From positions 1 to 22,176 of IMG/VR virus record IMGVR_UViG_2585427971_000007: a stretch of 22,176 bases of DNA; one strand, given 5' to 3'. The notes under the pieces are model-generated. The model had not been told where the DNA came from. It saw only the letters and a list, made by a program, of their open reading frames with translations, and did no database searches. A program made the translations under genes and the position numbers. Below are positions 2,591 through 21,290 of this stretch, piece after piece (within the stretch, counting starts at the first letter, position 1; the number at the start of each line of letters is the position of its first letter). The stretch comes from a virus (Duplodnaviria > Heunggongvirae > Uroviricota > Caudoviricetes).

Positions 2591-2773
2591 TTATTTCTGA
2601 TTAGGCGTAATCAGTTCTTGTGGGGTGAATGCCGATTTCTCCCGAGTGACCTTAATGTTTTCTGGCAGGTGTAGCCCAAGTTCGCAGCGGCTCCGTGCTT
2701 CAATAATGCCATTGGTACCATCGGCAAGTACCAGGTGAACCGCGTCACCACGCTTTAATGTGAGTTTAAGCAT
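2591..2773 (-). CDS. Hypothetical small protein (60 aa)
   Basis: Start codon overlaps the stop of the upstream 189-aa gene (ATGA overlap), suggesting translational coupling. Confidence 0.5.
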   Translation of the reverse strand: MLKLTLKRGDAVHLVLADGTNGIIEARSRCELGLHLPENIKVTREKSAFTPQELITPNQK

Positions 2774-3342
2774 TAGCGTATCCTCAGTGACCGTTCGCCG
2801 CGTTCCAGATGTGCGCCTGGTACCGGGTTTAATAACTCGGCTGGTGGTGTTTCTCCACGCGCCAGTATTTCGGCGGCAACCGCCTCCGCAGATTCAATCA
2901 CTTCTTTAATGGCTCGCTTGTTTGGTGTAATAACCGTTTCTACATCAACAAGTGACACGCCCTCATACTCATCCGGGATCTTATCTTTGCTATCGATAAT
3001 TACCCGGATAGCCCCCTGTGCATCAGTAAATGTGTTTTTTGCGGTTTTCAGTTTATCCAGGCCAGCAGCTTGCAGGCAGGTGAGCATATGCTTTCGAATT
3101 GCTTTTTCCTTGCCTTCAAAGGACGTCTTACGGGTTGCCAGGCGAGACATTTCTTCAGCGCAGGTATTGGCATTGCCCTGTAAATTACGGCAGATGACCA
3201 TCATGGCGTCCAGTTTGTCTCCCAGTTCTCCTTCCATGCCTTCAAGCGTGTCGGCGATCATCTCTGGCGTCAGTTCATCGGCGGTTTCTAACAGGTCAAT
3301 CAGACTGGCATATTCTTTTGCAATAGCGATAGCAGTGCTCAT
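2773..3342 (-). CDS. Phage early protein, Gam / Gp157-like (putative host-nuclease inhibitor); family assignment tentative
   Basis: 189-aa acidic protein with coiled-coil-like N-terminus; AGGAG RBS; start overlaps the stop of the upstream annealase gene; resemblance to Mu Gam / siphovirus Gp157 judged from memory only. Confidence 0.55.
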   Translation of the reverse strand: MSTAIAIAKEYASLIDLLETADELTPEMIADTLEGMEGELGDKLDAMMVICRNLQGNANTCAEEMSRLATRKTSFEGKEKAIRKHMLTCLQAAGLDKLKTAKNTFTDAQGAIRVIIDSKDKIPDEYEGVSLVDVETVITPNKRAIKEVIESAEAVAAEILARGETPPAELLNPVPGAHLERGERSLRIR

Positions 3343-5555
3343 GCTGTTTGCTCCTGTGCAGCGGTAAGGGCGGCGAGGCGTTCAGTTTTAATGTCGGTGA
3401 TACGGCGCAGACGTGATCCCAGATACGATGAATATTCTTTATCGCCTTTGGTTTCCGCTGCTTTCCTGTGTACATCCACTTCGCGGGCGATGAGGCCAAA
3501 TACCTTGTTTACTTCGTTGGCGGTTACCGCGGCGGCCAGCGTATTGGCAACGTTGATAAGCTTCTCATCCAGTTCCTTACGCAGACGGGTAGCATCTTCC
3601 GCATTCTCGCTGGCATTCTTGATATCAAACTCAGCTTTATTCCTCTGGCGGTATTCCGGATTGTCGTACAGGCCCATGAAAATATCGGCGCTGAATCCGA
3701 GAGGGGATAGCGCTTTCTTAACAGCATCCGTCCAGGATTTCTTCGGTGCTTCGCCGTCGCTTGTTGGTCCGTATTTAGTGTCGTAGATATAAGGTGTGCA
3801 TCCGTAAGCCTCGGACTCACCGCGTACCCCATTCAATATGTACCAGACTCTCACTTTCATGGTGTGGTGCATTTCACATAGGTACCCGCCAACACCGTCT
3901 TGAATCAGATCCCATTCTATTTTTTCACCAACCTGTTTTTTGCGAACTATTGGTGCGCCTTTATCAAAGCGCTCCTCCAGCACCTCTACCCCCCAGCCAA
4001 TACCAAATGGCCCAAATTCGCGAGTCGCTTTCATCGCTATATAAGTGCCGTTGATGGATGTGCCGCCGCCATTCTGAGAGAAAGCACTGGTGAAGCGCTC
4101 ATCGGTTTTGAATACGTTCTTCCACAATGCCAGGTTATCCGTGTCATCTGAGTCCTTTAACTCCGTTTCGATAGCTGAGATTGCATTCTGCCGCTTGTGC
4201 TCTTCGGCATGGATCCGCTCAACCAGCGCGTCAACGTTCTGCACCAGATCCTTTACCTGCTCGCTAAGTTGTTCTTGTGGAGGAGTCTCTTCTGCCAGGG
4301 TAATAGCTGCAGGTTCCCTCTGTGATACGGCGTTATTTTCAGGTACGTCATACACATGGCGAGGCGTGACAAACTGCTCACGCAACTGCTGCAAACTACG
4401 TTCTCCAGCATTTGCAGCTTCGCTTTTTTCGCCCTGATTTGAGGGTGTTTCTGACATCATCCCATCAATTGAGAATCGTCCGCCGCCGTGGTTGGTGACT
4501 TTTACATCATCCTTGGGTGCTGCTTCCTTTGGCTTCTCTTCAACAGCATTTGCATCACGCTGCCCGTTAGCTTGCAGCCAGTTGTCGATGTGACTGCGCA
4601 GGGATTGTGGGAAGTGGTACGTGTCTTTTGCGGGGGCGCTCTGAATAACACCGAATACTGATGCGCGGTCATAGGCAAGGATCTGATCCGTTGTGCGCAA
4701 GGCCATTGACCAGCGTTTAAAATCTTCCCTGTCCTGACTGATTATTTCGTCTGCCGCTTTCAGGATGCTGGGGGTGATTTTTTCCGGGGCAACAGGTAAC
4801 AGGGCGCAGGCAATTTCACGATCCAGAGTGGCGTGAGTCTGTTTGTAAGGACGTGCGGATGCTGTTTCTGGTTTTACCTCCGGCAGCATTTCATCTCGTT
4901 TACCGGGATTCTCTACCCATTTTTTTATAAATTTGGAGATAGTCCAACTGGTCGGGTTTTGTTCCTGGGTATCGCAACTTGCCAAAATTGCATGTACCAG
5001 ATTATTCAATCCAGCAATATGCATGTACTCGATGGGCTTACACGCCACCATGGCATCAAGAACGATGCGGTTAAACGCGTCAACCTCATCCTCACTGTCA
5101 GTATCACTGTTATCGAGCATCTCCAGGTATTCACGCGTCTGCACAAGCAATTCACTGTCGACTTCGTTGGCGTCGTGGCTGAACAGCAGAACGGCGGCGA
5201 ATCGTTCACGAGCCGGCAGTTTCATCAGGTCGCTAACCTGTGAGATATCTGCTGAACTGCAATCTGAATCAACAGGAGTGTTAACTACCCATTTTTCGCC
5301 ATCAAAACTGTGTTCTGTGGCAAACGTCTCATCAAACTCACCGACGCCTGGGCGCGGTTGGCCCGGGGCATCTTCCCAGATTTTAGGTTTGAAATAGTTG
5401 TCGCCGTGGTCAGGGTAGGCTTCCCACAATTTGCCGATGATGATGTTCTCGGCAACTTTTTTGTTAGGGGCGGCGATGGCGATGGCCAGCGCCGGGATCG
5501 CGCCGTTTTTGAGCGCGCCTTTTTTCGCTTCTAACAAGCCGTTAAAAATGGTCAT
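3339..5555 (-). CDS. Large early protein: N-terminal ~470 aa of unknown function fused to a C-terminal Rad52/Sak-like single-strand annealing domain
   Basis: 738-aa ORF with RBS GAGGAAAGACC; residues ~490-635 carry Rad52-family hallmarks (GGG...FGPFGIGWG ... GESEAYG ... TDAVKKALSPLGFSADIFMGLYD). Confidence 0.75.
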   Translation of the reverse strand: MTIFNGLLEAKKGALKNGAIPALAIAIAAPNKKVAENIIIGKLWEAYPDHGDNYFKPKIWEDAPGQPRPGVGEFDETFATEHSFDGEKWVVNTPVDSDCSSADISQVSDLMKLPARERFAAVLLFSHDANEVDSELLVQTREYLEMLDNSDTDSEDEVDAFNRIVLDAMVACKPIEYMHIAGLNNLVHAILASCDTQEQNPTSWTISKFIKKWVENPGKRDEMLPEVKPETASARPYKQTHATLDREIACALLPVAPEKITPSILKAADEIISQDREDFKRWSMALRTTDQILAYDRASVFGVIQSAPAKDTYHFPQSLRSHIDNWLQANGQRDANAVEEKPKEAAPKDDVKVTNHGGGRFSIDGMMSETPSNQGEKSEAANAGERSLQQLREQFVTPRHVYDVPENNAVSQREPAAITLAEETPPQEQLSEQVKDLVQNVDALVERIHAEEHKRQNAISAIETELKDSDDTDNLALWKNVFKTDERFTSAFSQNGGGTSINGTYIAMKATREFGPFGIGWGVEVLEERFDKGAPIVRKKQVGEKIEWDLIQDGVGGYLCEMHHTMKVRVWYILNGVRGESEAYGCTPYIYDTKYGPTSDGEAPKKSWTDAVKKALSPLGFSADIFMGLYDNPEYRQRNKAEFDIKNASENAEDATRLRKELDEKLINVANTLAAAVTANEVNKVFGLIAREVDVHRKAAETKGDKEYSSYLGSRLRRITDIKTERLAALTAAQEQTA

Positions 5556-5585
5556 TGGTCTTTCCTCATTACAGGTCAGTGGTTT

Positions 5586-5906
5586 TTAGTAGGGGAGCTC
5601 ATCGGTATCTGGCGTGTATTCGATGCAAAGTAACTGCTGGATTTTGTCATCGATAGCAGCAATACGCTGTTGGGCGTCGGCGACTGTTTTCTGTTTTTGT
5701 TCACGCAGTTGCTCGACCTGTAAACCGATGATGTCGATTGGCTCGGGCTGGTTAACGGTAATTTCAATTTCGCGGCTTTCCAGAAGGATGTACCTGTCTG
5801 GAAAATTTTTTGACATATCAACAGTCGCAACAAGCAGCTTTTCGTGGCTGAAAGTTGAAGTTGCATAATGAATAAAGAGTGTTACTGGGATGGTGCGCGC
5901 TTCCAT
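5586..5906 (-). CDS. Hypothetical phage early protein (106 aa)
   Basis: ATG preceded by an AAGGAG RBS; first gene of the leftward early operon. Confidence 0.6.
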   Translation of the reverse strand: MEARTIPVTLFIHYATSTFSHEKLLVATVDMSKNFPDRYILLESREIEITVNQPEPIDIIGLQVEQLREQKQKTVADAQQRIAAIDDKIQQLLCIEYTPDTDELPY

Positions 5907-6759
5907 AGCGACTCCTTGGTAATGTATACTCAGAGCCGATCAGCGAATATTGATCAGCTTCCATAGCGTCAGTGTCGTTGGTCTTTCCTCATCACAAGTT
6001 TGGTCACTTGTGATAAATCCGAATGGTTTGGTCGCCGTTCGGGGTAACTGGCCCGCCTTGTGCGGGTCTTTTGCTATCTAAAGGGTGCCGGTTACGTTTC
6101 CGGCGTCGTTATGTTTCCATTACGACCGTACAGGGCTGGTCAGGCCCGGGCTGGTCTTTCCTGTTTTGAGCTGGTCAGGCTCATGGTCAACGCTGGTCAG
6201 GCGTGGTACTTCCTCCGGTCTTTCCCTGGTGTCACGCTGCGGGTTTGGCCTCTCCTGTTGGGGACTCAGGCACAGCGATAAAACCTGGCTGTGTGAAAAA
6301 ATGGCCCATCGTGCGGACTGGGCAAAGACTAAACACAGCAAATTGATGATGGGCGCCCGGAATCGAACCGGGTAACGGGCAGGGAGTTCCCGTTAAACAC
6401 CTGTTCACCACAACCGGGAGCGCACTCCGCCATTTCAAAATTTAACGACAAAGCTCAAAGTTGAGTCGATGAAGTGCGCTCTCGTGTTGTAGCCAGGACT
6501 CTTCCCTGGTGGTCACACCGTATCGCCTTGATGGTGAATCAATCGCTCATACCTGGCTGTGGCTTGCACATTCCGGCTACCTGCTATGGAGACAACGCGT
6601 TAAGGCTCCGCTTCCATCCAGACCGCTTCGACACATGTGCCATATGCCGGTGAAGTCTTTCCCTCTGTCACCGTGTTGGCGCCGACGCGCAAAATTTGGT
6701 GCCGTCTTTCCGGCTGTCAGAACGTGTTTCTGAACAACTGCCGCTGGGTAAGCGTTGTT

Positions 6760-6870
6760 GATGAAAGTGACTTTACAATTTGTATTTGTAATGGTCAATG
6801 TGTTTTTAAAAAATAATTTGTAGTGAGGGGCAAAAAAATATTCACTGTGTAAAGGTGTTTTTGTGTTAGG
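6760..6870. promoter_or_regulatory. AT-rich putative OL/pL-type operator-promoter region downstream of the repressor gene
   Basis: Repeated TTTGTA(A/T) motifs (caatttgtatttgtaatgg, aataatttgtagtgagg) resembling those between the repressor and cro genes. Confidence 0.4.
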
Positions 6871-6995
6871 GGAAAGTTGCATGCCAGCAGCGGCTGGCCT
6901 GGAAATTTGAACTGAACTATTTTGTCTGGTTTTTGGCTTCAAGTAGTTCTTTTAGCAGTAGATCGAAGTGCTCTCTTTTTCTTTTAGCTCATTGA

Positions 6996-7328
6996 TTAAT
7001 TTATTTTTTCGCTCTCAGGCAGTCCTCTGAATAGTTGCAGTAGAGCCTGTTCTTGCGGGGTTAGTTCTTGATTGTAATTACCCGGGTGTAGTGTGGATTC
7101 ATCCAAATATTCCCCTTCATTCATGAAGAAAAAATGAACAGGGTATCCGGTCACTTTTGCTAGCTTGTCTAATTTATCTTTTCTTGGAGTTACCCCATTA
7201 CACCATGCCTGAACTGATTGAGCCGTAACCCCAATATGGCGAGCTAACTCAGATTGAGACCAGCCTAAGTCTTTTAGAATCCGTTGTAGTCGGCTAGCAA
7301 AAGCCATGTTTTTCGTTTTTGTGTTCAT
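6996..7328 (-). CDS. Phage repressor, short XRE-family helix-turn-helix protein with no peptidase domain
   Basis: HTH signature WSQSELARHIGVTAQSVQAWCNG; divergent from a Cro-like gene; start uncertain (alternatives at 7343 TTG, 7328 ATG, 7307 ATG). Confidence 0.8.
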   Translation of the reverse strand: MNTKTKNMAFASRLQRILKDLGWSQSELARHIGVTAQSVQAWCNGVTPRKDKLDKLAKVTGYPVHFFFMNEGEYLDESTLHPGNYNQELTPQEQALLQLFRGLPESEKIN

Positions 7329-7343
7329 ACCGTAAGGATACAA

Positions 7344-7426
7344 GGTTTAATTGTAGGGAGCATTGCAAATATAATTTGTAATTACAGTTATTGTTTGTAA
7401 TGATGACGCGGACACAAGGAGTCCAT
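7344..7426. promoter_or_regulatory. Divergent promoter/operator region of the immunity switch
   Basis: Intergenic region between divergent repressor and cro genes with repeated TTTGTAAT motifs (aatttgtaattacag, ttgtttgtaatgatg) and TTGCAA -35-like hexamer. Confidence 0.55.
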
Positions 7427-7657
7427 ATGGATAAACAACTGCAAGACAAAATTCTTTCCGTAATGAGTCAATCCGAGTTAGGGCGGCGATTAGGGAAAAA
7501 ACCACAAACGGTAAGCCTCTGGTTCAAAGGACGGGTTCCCGGTGAAGAGGTTTTGCGCACATCTGAAGCTCTTGAATGGCGCGTGACCCCTCATGATCTT
7601 AGACCGGATCTTTACCCAAACCCAGATGACAGCTTGCCTAAAACGGAAGCAGCTTAA
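7427..7657 (+). CDS. Cro/Apl-like HTH regulator (76 aa from the ATG at 7427)
   Basis: AAGGAG RBS 5 nt upstream of the ATG; HTH motif SQSELGRRLGKKPQTVSLWFKG; divergent from the repressor. Confidence 0.8.
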   Translation: MDKQLQDKILSVMSQSELGRRLGKKPQTVSLWFKGRVPGEEVLRTSEALEWRVTPHDLRPDLYPNPDDSLPKTEAA

Positions 7658-7715: not shown

Positions 7716-8192
7716 ATGGAAAACCAAGAGGAATTACAAAAAGAGATTTTGACCTGGGCGGCAAGGGCAGGGCAGGAACTCGTCACGATTGAAATCTGCC
7801 GGGCCTGGTTCAGTCAGGGACGCAATGATGAGTTGAGACTACATGAATTTGAGGACGCGGACGGCAACGTGGACTGGAGAGCCATCAACAACAATCGGCA
7901 GAAAATCTTTCGCTGGTTACGTGGCGAGACAACGGCGGCGCGCCGAAAAACTCAGGTGCTGGCCAGTGTGATGAAAGCCGTGCTACCCGCAGAACGGCGG
8001 GCACGTCTGGAGTCGCCGGGCGATCCCGTTTTGCTGGCAACGCTGGCGGCAAAAGAAGGGGTGGAAGCGATTAACGCTGTACATCTCCACTTCGCGCCAG
8101 AGTTAACTATTCAGGAAATTGACGAAGCAATAGCGGCGCTGGTAGCGACGCGAGGAGCAGTGATACGCACTGCGCAAGACCACCATGCATGA
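7716..8192 (+). CDS. Phage regulatory protein, CII-like / YdaT-like (tentative)
   Basis: 158-aa ORF with AGGAG RBS directly downstream of cro; functional call rests on position in the switch operon only. Confidence 0.45.
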   Translation: MENQEELQKEILTWAARAGQELVTIEICRAWFSQGRNDELRLHEFEDADGNVDWRAINNNRQKIFRWLRGETTAARRKTQVLASVMKAVLPAERRARLESPGDPVLLATLAAKEGVEAINAVHLHFAPELTIQEIDEAIAALVATRGAVIRTAQDHHA

Positions 8193-8231
8193 GCGCCTGA
8201 CCAGCGTTTAACTTATACCGAGGAAAGACCG

Positions 8232-8456
8232 ATGTTAAGACATATTGACCGCATTACCTGGCGTAACGGCTGGCACCTGAATGGACGCCCGGCACATGTT
8301 GCAGAGATCCGCCCCATATTCGATGGCCGCGTCGCAGCTGCACGTTCTGTATGGGAAAAGTACGAAGAAGAAAAAGCGAAACTGCGTGAGCAAAATCTCT
8401 CTGGCGCTGCCTATGAGGCTGGCTGTCGCGTTCTCTCAGAGGCTTTGGGCATATGA
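8232..8456 (+). CDS. Hypothetical protein (74 aa)
   Basis: ATG preceded by GAGGAAAGACC RBS; last gene of the rightward early operon before the convergent junction. Confidence 0.5.
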   Translation: MLRHIDRITWRNGWHLNGRPAHVAEIRPIFDGRVAAARSVWEKYEEEKAKLREQNLSGAAYEAGCRVLSEALGI

Positions 8457-21041: not shown

Positions 21042-21290
21042 TCAGCAAGTGCGAAACCCCTTGCAGTTACGCAGGAAAGCGATGAGAAGCGTCTTTCCCT
21101 CAGATTTGCCGATGCCGGAGAACCAGTGGTCGGGAGGCTCCCATGCTTCAATCAAATCCGCCAGTTTGCGGGCCTTTGAACGTGTGCAGTCAATCGGGTC
21201 ATTGGTTTTACGGGTATTAAAAAGGGTTTCCACCCCCGGAATATCAAGGAGGGTAAACCACGTACCATTTGACATGCCAGTGCCGCACAT
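21042..21290 (-). CDS. Hypothetical tail-module protein (82 aa)
   Basis: ATG preceded by a strong AAGGAGG RBS; lies between the tube and chaperone genes. Confidence 0.5.
   Translation of the reverse strand: MCGTGMSNGTWFTLLDIPGVETLFNTRKTNDPIDCTRSKARKLADLIEAWEPPDHWFSGIGKSEGKTLLIAFLRNCKGFRTC

Follow-up and report, generated by a model that had tools for sequence, protein, structure and literature searches.

The window analyzed here, a stretch of 22,176 nucleotides (nt) comprising positions 1 to 22,176 of IMG/VR virus record IMGVR_UViG_2585427971_000007, opens with pgsA and the tRNA genes glyW, cysT, and leuZ (701 to 1002), and a temperate prophage is inserted adjoining leuZ. This prophage region is present in 474 of 5,426 complete Escherichia coli genomes (about 9%), mostly at 99% identity or more. 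Its early genes are arranged in two divergent operons (Table 1). Between the first gene of the leftward operon, encoding a protein of 106 amino acids (aa), and the cI-like repressor gene lies a gene-free stretch of about 1 kb, and the RefSeq copies of the same prophage carry no annotated feature there. Within it the decamer CTGGTCAGGC is repeated in tandem. The best explanation overall for these decamers, which we consider evenly poised between right and wrong on the sequence data, is that they are tandem RNA hairpins in the leader of the leftward operon, part of a cassette that would be addressed by an antisense small RNA.

The decamer occurs exactly at 6136 to 6145, 6171 to 6180, and 6193 to 6202, and each copy extends to the 11-mer GCTGGTCAGGC (at 6135, 6170, and 6192). 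This bears out the first-pass annotation, which had reported three copies within about 75 bp. A fourth exact copy is found on the opposite strand at 8195 to 8204. The 8-mer core CTGACCAG is present five times in the window, where 0.71 copies are expected and none of 100 shuffled sequences reached five. The companion motif GTCTTTCC, with the minus-strand form GGAAAGAC, is present 10 times against an expectation of 0.56, a number likewise reached by 0 of 100 shuffles. Related GTCTTTCC motifs followed by TGTCA had also been described in that annotation, and they were recovered at 6218, 6655, and 6704; two more copies of GTCTTTCC lie at 5981 and 6154.

A promoter scan located a pL-like leftward early promoter that is predicted to drive the leader containing the hairpins, and the conserved leader sequence TTTCTGAACAACTGCCGC comes after a pL-like promoter in 112 viral contigs. 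An intrinsic terminator, which closes an RprA-like RNA described below, lies on the minus strand at 6318 to 6297. Since the promoter points left and this terminator is on the minus strand, the minus strand is the transcribed strand of the leader. Two terminator-like hairpins precede the first gene in the leader, and only the first has a U-tract on that strand. The GGAAAGAC motif falls on the transcribed strand at the 9 of its 10 sites in the window for which gene context was examined; the tenth is at 21091. Three copies stand directly before true start codons (5555, 2381, and 8232), and five are in the noncoding leader.

Each decamer is contained in a 15-nt hairpin, and the outer stem bases vary among the copies yet remain complementary. 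In the order of Table 1, the plus-strand letters of the three hairpins are GGGC-TGGTCAG-GCCC, GAGC-TGGTCAG-GCTC, and ACGC-TGGTCAG-GCGT. On the minus strand the decamer reads GCCUGACCAG and the loop reads CUGACCA, and all three of these A-type hairpins appear in the minimum-energy fold of that strand. The remaining GGAAAGAC copies of the leader are of two kinds, either unpaired and ribosome-binding-like (for example, CGAGGAAAGACCAA) or part of B-type hairpins, which have a GAAAGA loop, a covarying stem of 4 to 5 bp, and UGACA before the stem. Among relatives, B-type hairpins with stems of at least 4 bp were found in 65 distinct contexts, 56 of which had a UGACA-like flank. At 6084 to 6104 on the minus strand, a hairpin in the window, GCCGG-AAACGTAA-CCGGC, has a degraded loop; its counterpart in relatives is GCCGG-GAAAGA-CCGGC. 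A search of the whole window against Rfam 15 at the gathering score returned only three host tRNAs, and a permissive Rfam search of positions 5500 to 7400 gave no match to the hairpin array.

The 112 viral contigs retrieved with TTTCTGAACAACTGCCGC, together with other loci, yielded 91 distinct versions of the region ranging from 395 to 1,378 nt. A 14-mer scan of viral contigs (CGCTGGTCAGGCGT) gave mostly chance matches, and homologues were picked out by BLAST. Every version contained 3 to 9 copies of GTCTTTCC and 4 to 10 copies of TGGTC. The motifs are thus kept in related prophages, though the hairpin copies per leader, counted as TGGTCAG, vary from 0 to 3, with the window type representing the maximum. 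The 91 leader variants contain 268 TGACCA sites, of which 122 have stems of at least 4 bp. Left of the early promoter, 55 well-paired hairpins are on the minus strand; to its right, 45 are on the plus strand; and 2 are antisense, giving a ratio of 100 sense to 2. The stems covary, with 25 cases of G·U against a single case of A·C. This orientation bias, with G·U tolerated and A·C not, indicates an element that is single-stranded and resides in the sense strand.

The hairpins proved to be one part of a larger cassette. In BUCT708, a deposited phage with a complete genome, and at 116 loci, the sense strand carries the hairpin GCGC-CUGACCA-GCGY, 10 to 15 A/U-rich nt, GAGGAAAGACC, 0 to 3 nt, and AUG, in that order. 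The hairpin family is defined by a 4-bp G+C stem and a 7-nt loop, (C/A/U)UGACCA. In 151 distinct contexts, the GGAAAGAC motif precedes an ATG and an open reading frame (ORF) of 50 aa or more, with GAGGAAAGACC positioned 0 to 3 nt before the ATG, and the hairpin-loop motif occurs within 45 nt upstream in 78 of them; 243 further contexts that lack an ATG are orphans. The positions outside the Shine-Dalgarno core (GACC) are conserved as well as the core itself. In the window, the cassette genes are those for the exonuclease-like protein, the excisionase, and the 74-aa protein, and both divergent early operons are used. All 13 copies of GGAAAGAC in the BUCT708 genome are on the transcribed strand of the surrounding genes, with four before early genes, six in the leader of the leftward operon, and three inside genes, and cassettes there precede early-region genes only. 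The cassette was also found in prophages of Serratia, Enterobacter, Citrobacter, Raoultella, Shimwellia, Rosenbergiella, and others, at the same gene junctions, with flanking proteins merely 40 to 60% identical. The hairpins, the cassette, and their strand specificity emerge from sequence analysis, and on that footing we consider this description very probably correct.

Several other identities for the repeats were considered. The first-pass annotation had judged the stretch to be noncoding, and this judgment holds: no reading frame is conserved over the orphan copies across relatives, stems of 3 or 4 bp shift the frame, and start codons vary. A 37-aa ORF is annotated over the homologous stretch in BUCT708; small ORFs of this kind were rejected, with frames and starts that differ among relatives and no ATG in the window. 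The frame shifts, the varying start codons, and the missing ATG together exclude coding sequence. A CsrA-type sponge, with GGA presented in loops, was set aside, as the GGA straddles the stem-loop boundary and the conservation runs through GACC. An anticodon-loop mimic of tRNA-Val (CU-GAC-CA) was also set aside; position 37 would be a pyrimidine, no other support was found, and only the U-turn analogy was kept. Extended pairing of the motif with the 3′ end of 16S rRNA seems unlikely, since only GAGG would fit.

The first-pass annotation had further proposed that the repeats are iterons or repeated protein-binding sites. The idea of repeated recognition sites, conserved in related prophages, was upheld at the level of RNA but not as double-stranded DNA. 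The idea of iterons at an origin fell, given an orientation that follows transcription, stems that covary, and sites coupled to ribosome-binding sites and start codons. A DNA-level role might also be sought in single-stranded DNA, with the hairpins acting on the lagging-strand template as priming or primosome signals. The repeats are indeed clustered and directly repeated, and if replication starts between the divergent operons the sense strands would be the lagging-strand template, in which case strand bias alone would not be decisive. However, the copies are tightly coupled to translation starts, no DnaA box was found within 1 kb, and no A+T-rich unwinding region lies beside the repeats, where G+C content is 55 to 58%. 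Nor are the repeats near a replication initiator gene; initiator-like and DnaB genes are found in the rightward operon of relatives and are absent from the window. The repeats are not palindromic operators, neither motif has a copy in the cI-cro intergenic region (7343 to 7391), and 4-bp stems are weak as DNA hairpins. We consider action in DNA, whether single stranded or as double-stranded iterons or repressor sites, to be highly improbable.

A different question is whether the leader copies do anything at present. Related leaders differ by whole modules inserted between units, namely an RprA-like RNA, a tRNA-like element, a structured RNA of 170 nt, or small genes. Homology breakpoints are nearer the motif than random positions are (median, 18 versus 29 nt), a closeness that is only suggestive because the breakpoints are not mutually independent. 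The cassette could accordingly be a strong ribosome-binding site with a flanking hairpin that has spread by recombination, the decamers being orphans produced by gene loss and slippage. The copy number of 0 to 3 is compatible with such a history, as are the degraded loop of one window copy and a 96.6%-identical relative in which one copy has been lost to a deletion of 15 nt between GGGCTGGTC repeats. A test came from 80 loci that were retrieved solely by homology to the 106-aa protein (42 to 100% identity) and that represent 66 distinct leaders. All 66 retain at least one orphan GGAAAGACC copy, even with the adjacent protein down to 42% identity. Moreover, the stems covary and are not identical, which argues for selection on structure and not only recent copying, and the GACC positions outside the Shine-Dalgarno core are conserved like the core. 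We therefore regard copies devoid of present function as improbable.

On the strand opposite the leader, about 60 nt from the hairpin array, we predict an antisense small RNA. The plus strand from 5937 to 6078 folds at −62.1 kcal/mol (z = −7.4), compared with −41.9 kcal/mol for the minus strand. Six divergent variants, one of them from Serratia, share a fold consisting of hairpin H1, a single-stranded UUUCCUC, hairpins H2 and H3, both with the loop UUGGUC, and a terminator (z, −5.2 to −9.0). H2 and H3 were aligned in 18 sequences from a set with no two above 93% identity. Over their 19 base pairs, 97.3% of the cells were paired and 13 of the pairs showed compensatory changes; none of 500 shuffles was as good, and slid controls gave 43 to 51%. 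In about 55 of the H2 and H3 cells, the plus strand has a G·U pair where the minus strand would have A·C, and so H2 and H3 are selected on the strand opposite to the decamer hairpins. A plus-strand intrinsic terminator was found in 94 of 94 variants, 126 to 214 nt (median, 131 nt) from the start of the 106-aa gene, and it is made by either of two unrelated stems at the same place, GGCCCGC/GCGGGCC followed by T4 or AGCCCAC/GTGGGCT followed by T6-7. Among the leaders retrieved by the 106-aa protein, the core GGUCUUUCC was present in 66 of 66, the terminator was present in 65, and a −10-like TATA[ACT]T hexamer, in a pattern that also accepted TATATC, stood at the expected position in 66. The Serratia version has a canonical extended −10, TGATATAAT. 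These features of structure and termination, again read from sequence, make it likely that a functional plus-strand small RNA exists. No Rfam family was identified for it, the permissive search of 5500 to 7400 giving terminator-driven matches of at most 19 bits, and it is not annotated in the RefSeq copies. When its sequence was compared with deposited phages, only BUCT708 and BUCT709 matched, and nothing relevant on the motifs or on RprA-like prophage RNAs emerged from searches of the literature.

The small RNA and the cassette are complementary in several respects. The sequence GAGGAAAGACCAA is complementary to the free UUUCCUC and to the longer UUGGUCUUUCCUC, and GACCA(A/G), which forms the core of the decamer loop, is complementary to the UUGGUC loops. 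The order of elements also matches in antiparallel fashion, with hairpin, spacer, and ribosome site in the target facing the anti-Shine-Dalgarno stretch, H2, and H3 in the small RNA. A duplex scan of the 25-nt seed region against 8,856 windows of 40 nt, covering both strands, ranked the cis site best. The next three were the starts of the exonuclease (−32.8 kcal/mol), excisionase (−30.5 kcal/mol), and 74-aa (−27.6 kcal/mol) genes, where the mean was −11.8 with a standard deviation of 3.6. Target loops CUGACCA and UUGACCA begin with a YUNR sequence (CUGA in the first), the AUGACCA variant lacks the Y, and UUGG in the small-RNA loops is also YUNR. Loop-loop pairing may extend to 7 bp with the closing bases. 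YUNR U-turn loops are a general feature of kissing antisense systems (PMC4485353).

From this complementarity and geometry, we propose that the UUGGUC loops of the small RNA kiss the GACCA loops of the hairpins and that the single-stranded stretch then pairs over the GAGGAAAGACC ribosome-binding site, which would block translation of the cassette genes in the lysogen. The small RNA would in this way keep excision and recombination functions silent. The leader array, consisting of three hairpins and about five orphan GGAAAGACC copies, would bind the same small RNA ahead of the fully complementary segment. It could provide an entry site for fast pairing, or it could act as a decoy that sequesters the small RNA once the early promoter fires after induction. 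We infer expression of the small RNA, a promoter of its own (suggested by the −10-like hexamer), the pairing, and the direction of regulation. That the decamers are kissing-loop receptors or decoys for the small RNA is a plausible mechanism, to which we give slightly less than an even chance.

A number of observations weigh against this proposal. Both the small RNA and the leader transcript are predicted from sequence, and two promoter scans found no canonical promoter for the small RNA, leaving the −10-like element by itself. The complementarity of seed and cassette is partly built in, since one motif copy is on the strand facing the small-RNA gene. The seeds and targets are invariant in all 80 protein-anchored relatives, so there is no mutual covariation to read. 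Loop-loop pairing amounts to 5 to 7 bp only, and the first UUGGUC of the seed is paired within H1 in the predicted fold, which leaves UUUCCUC alone free. The array region folds with no greater stability than shuffled sequence (z = −0.08), and the evidence for the hairpins is therefore comparative, not energetic. Finally, 19 of the 66 leaders have no A-type hairpin, and the leader array therefore cannot be essential.

The same hairpins might instead be RNA elements read by a phage or host protein, for example an antiterminator in the manner of N and boxB or a translational repressor. Complementarity to the antisense RNA would then be a by-product of the position of that RNA across from other motif copies. 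Conserved loops on covarying stems are typical of protein-recognized hairpins, copies in both divergent early operons recall nutL and nutR, and the terminator-like hairpins before the first gene might require help for read-through. The lambda boxB loops are GAAAA and GAAGA, and the B-type loop GAAAGA resembles them. However, no N-like or arginine-rich early protein was found in searches of Pfam and PHROGs, and a search of the sense strand of the leader gave no boxA. The A-type loop has 7 nt and the B-type loop has 6 nt, and the former is not a GNRA-like pentaloop. Copies stand before many genes and not once per operon. A protein reader also does not explain the UUGGUC hairpins, which the roughly 55 G·U cells show to be selected on the opposite strand. 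We consider a protein reader unlikely, and antisense pairing remains our preferred reading.

Antisense control by small phage and plasmid RNAs has precedents with which the proposed system can be compared. In ColE1 RNA I/RNA II, R1 CopA/CopT, and hok/sok, control is exerted by kissing-loop antisense RNAs. The predicted system resembles these in having, by prediction and covariation, a structured antisense RNA with a terminator. It also has several short YUNR hairpin loops complementary to target loops, as well as a single-stranded segment through which pairing could be extended across a ribosome-binding site. It differs from them in its targets, since those systems have one overlapping target whereas here the motif is dispersed over several genes in two operons, so that action would be mostly in trans, and a tandem receptor array is predicted. 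The c4 RNA of P1 and P7 and the CI RNA of P4 are small RNAs with repeated seeds that pair with repeated sites in early transcripts, so that early functions stay off in the lysogen. Neither sequence nor Rfam comparison related the small RNA to them; the C4 family was not reported, and isrK gave only 14 bits, on a terminator. Those RNAs are processed from sense leader transcripts, whereas the small RNA here is antisense and would need its own start, and the phage here has a protein repressor as well. The PeSL elements of T4-type phages are short, repeated intergenic cassettes, comprising a promoter and a terminator-like stem-loop, that flank exchangeable modules in the hyperplastic early region. 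Breakpoints are enriched near the motif here, too, but the cassette is a ribosome-binding site with a small hairpin that is not a terminator.

The closest published description is that of the start-associated sequences (SAS and ESAS) of Cluster K mycobacteriophages. In these, a short asymmetric motif that includes the Shine-Dalgarno core precedes the start codon by a few bases in some of the genes (Pope et al. 2011, PMC3203893). SAS copies have one orientation, are confined to nonstructural genes, and are conserved across unrelated gene families, and about half have an inverted repeat just upstream (PMC3203893). Their function was not established; the authors suggested that a host or phage RNA or protein might bind them and, for ESAS, found no support for RNA pairing and favored DNA binding (PMC3203893). 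The GAGGAAAGACC cassette likewise has an asymmetric motif with a Shine-Dalgarno core, one orientation, a restriction to early genes, and a partial link to an upstream repeat. The sequences are unrelated (GAGGAAAGACC versus GGGATAGGAGCCC in Cluster K), making the two analogues and not homologues. The hosts here are enterobacteria, and the upstream repeat forms a short hairpin, the stems of which covary and include G·U pairs. A further difference is the clustering of many orphan copies in one leader, along with a gene for a complementary antisense RNA.

Table 1. Genes, predicted RNA elements, and motif copies in the window, ordered by position
Feature	Position(s)	Strand	Details
Integrase gene	1133-2179	−	
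Excisionase gene	2118-2381	−	ATG at 2381
Start-associated motif of excisionase gene	2379-2392	−	GAGGAAAGACC-AUG
Gp157-like gene	2773-3342	−	
Gene for 738-aa exonuclease-like protein	3339-5555	−	ATG at 5555
Start-associated motif of exonuclease-like gene	5553-5567	−	GAGGAAAGACCA-AUG
Gene for 106-aa protein	5586-5906	−	Acidic protein, no family assigned; first gene of leftward operon
Gene-free stretch	about 5907-6916		About 1 kb
Candidate −10 of small RNA	5925-5930	+	TATACT, without a convincing −35
Predicted antisense small RNA	5937-6075	+	About 139 nt; from folding, covariation, and terminator
Parts of small RNA	5978-5990; 5984-5990; 5991-6014; 6019-6042; 6050-6068	+	In addition to H1: seed UUGGUCUUUCCUC; single-stranded UUUCCUC within seed; H2; H3; terminator, then UUUU
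UUGGUC loops of small RNA	6000-6005; 6028-6033	+	H2 loop; H3 loop
A-type hairpin 1	6133-6147	−	GGGC-CUGACCA-GCCC; decamer copy 1; in minimum-energy fold and family statistics
Orphan start-associated motif	6151-6165	−	ACAGGAAAGACCAGC; no start codon after it
A-type hairpin 2	6168-6182	−	GAGC-CUGACCA-GCUC; decamer copy 2; BUCT708 orthologue GAGC-AUGACCA-GCUC
Extra unpaired motif copy	6183-6190	−	UUGACCAU, between hairpins 3 and 2; from sequence
A-type hairpin 3	6190-6204	−	ACGC-CUGACCA-GCGU; decamer copy 3; exact in BUCT708
Orphan motif just 5′ of hairpin array on RNA	6213-6233	−	GUGACA-CCAGGGAAAGACCGG running into GGAGGAA
Weak B-type unit	6650-6670	−	GUGACA, then GAGG-GAAAGA-CUUC
B-type unit	6700-6719	−	CUGACA, then hairpin GCCG-GAAAGA-CGGC
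pL-like leftward early promoter	6770-6798	−	TTGACC, 17 nt, TAAAGT; promoter scan
cI-like repressor gene	to 7343	−	
cro-like gene	7391-7657	+	
CII/YdaT-like gene	7716-8192	+	
A-type hairpin of rightward early operon	8193-8207	+	GCGC-CUGACCA-GCGU, directly after CII-like stop codon
Start-associated motif of 74-aa gene	8220-8234	+	GAGGAAAGACC-G-AUG, 12 nt past hairpin 8193-8207
Gene for 74-aa protein	8232-8456	+	ATG at 8232

The remainder of the leader contains further RNA-like modules. At 6294 to 6345 on the minus strand, UUGCUGUGUUUAGUCUUUGCCC is followed by the intrinsic terminator mentioned above. This module, with an Rfam match spanning 6294 to 6404, corresponds to the 3′ seed and terminator half of Rfam RprA; at 37.4 bits (E = 0.02), the match falls short of the family's gathering score of 70. 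The BUCT708 version has a different terminator stem, but its seed, UUGCUGUGUGUAGUCUU, agrees with the RprA consensus at every position. The module may be a prophage-encoded mimic of a host small RNA. The next module, at 6348 to 6428 on the minus strand directly 5′ of the RprA-like seed, resembles a tRNA, having a T-arm (CCCGG-UUCGAUU-CCGGG) and a 3′ strand like that of an acceptor stem. ARAGORN made no call for this element, and tRNA-Sec scored 19 bits; the T-stem covaries in one relative (UCCGG/CCGGA in L016). Its role might be to signal processing that frees the small RNA downstream. A third module is a structured RNA of about 170 nt (6478 to 6650, minus strand) that is not in Rfam and that has a 19-nt core found in more than 120 viral contigs. 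Several of its helices covary, and many G·U pairs favor the minus strand. It is also found in unannotated gaps of unrelated phages, namely the Uetakeviruses SPN1S, Tyrion, and PAT1 (where it lies between the terminase and portal genes), Klebsiella phage SopranoGao, and the P1-like SJ46.

Other observations concern the prophage itself. The integrase gene begins about 130 nt past leuZ (1003 to 1133), and the prophage thus occupies the place of the natural 3′ trailer of the glyW-cysT-leuZ transcript, which is known as a small-RNA sponge. At 6981, the window has T5 and the copy in SK1144, one carrier of this prophage, has T6. The shorter run puts the cI-like repressor out of frame, so that it terminates in SEKIN and lacks 29 further residues; the run reflects either a true defect or an error in sequencing the homopolymer. 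Past 8519/8520, the window and the SK1144 prophage are no longer collinear: SK1144 carries replication genes, including one for a replicative DNA helicase, and the window carries long ORFs on the minus strand. The window prophage seems to be rearranged or truncated and lacks a replication module. The Serratia (L238, 5146 to 7326) and Enterobacter (L234, 4566 to 6263) homologues of the 738-aa exonuclease-like protein contain a Ser-Thr repeat run (STSTSTST…), which is lacking in the protein of the window. BUCT708 and BUCT709 are deposited as "Stenotrophomonas" phages. Their whole early region and leader are common to Enterobacterales prophages, with the same cassettes (OM816834, whole genome), and the leader is about 72% identical in DNA to Enterobacterales prophage leaders. 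Because of this shared early region and leader, their recorded host looks doubtful.

Taken further, the antisense reading leads to a tentative model of a previously undescribed phage RNA regulon, in which an antisense small RNA of about 120 to 140 nt would control early genes through a cassette made of a U-turn hairpin and a ribosome-binding site, with the leader as an inducible sponge. The controlled genes, proposed with the same reserve, would be those for the excisionase and the exonuclease and genes next to the replication module. Relatives of the prophage are distributed across the Enterobacterales. If this model holds, the seemingly empty region of about 1 kb would be a dense cluster of RNA genes that current annotation misses. 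One small RNA would address many genes via a shared and mobile translation-start cassette, and lysogeny would be under a second, RNA-based layer of control beside the protein repressor. The prophage would also offer a concrete, mutable system for asking what start-associated sequences do and would suggest a testable mechanism for those of the mycobacteriophages, which have been unexplained since 2011.

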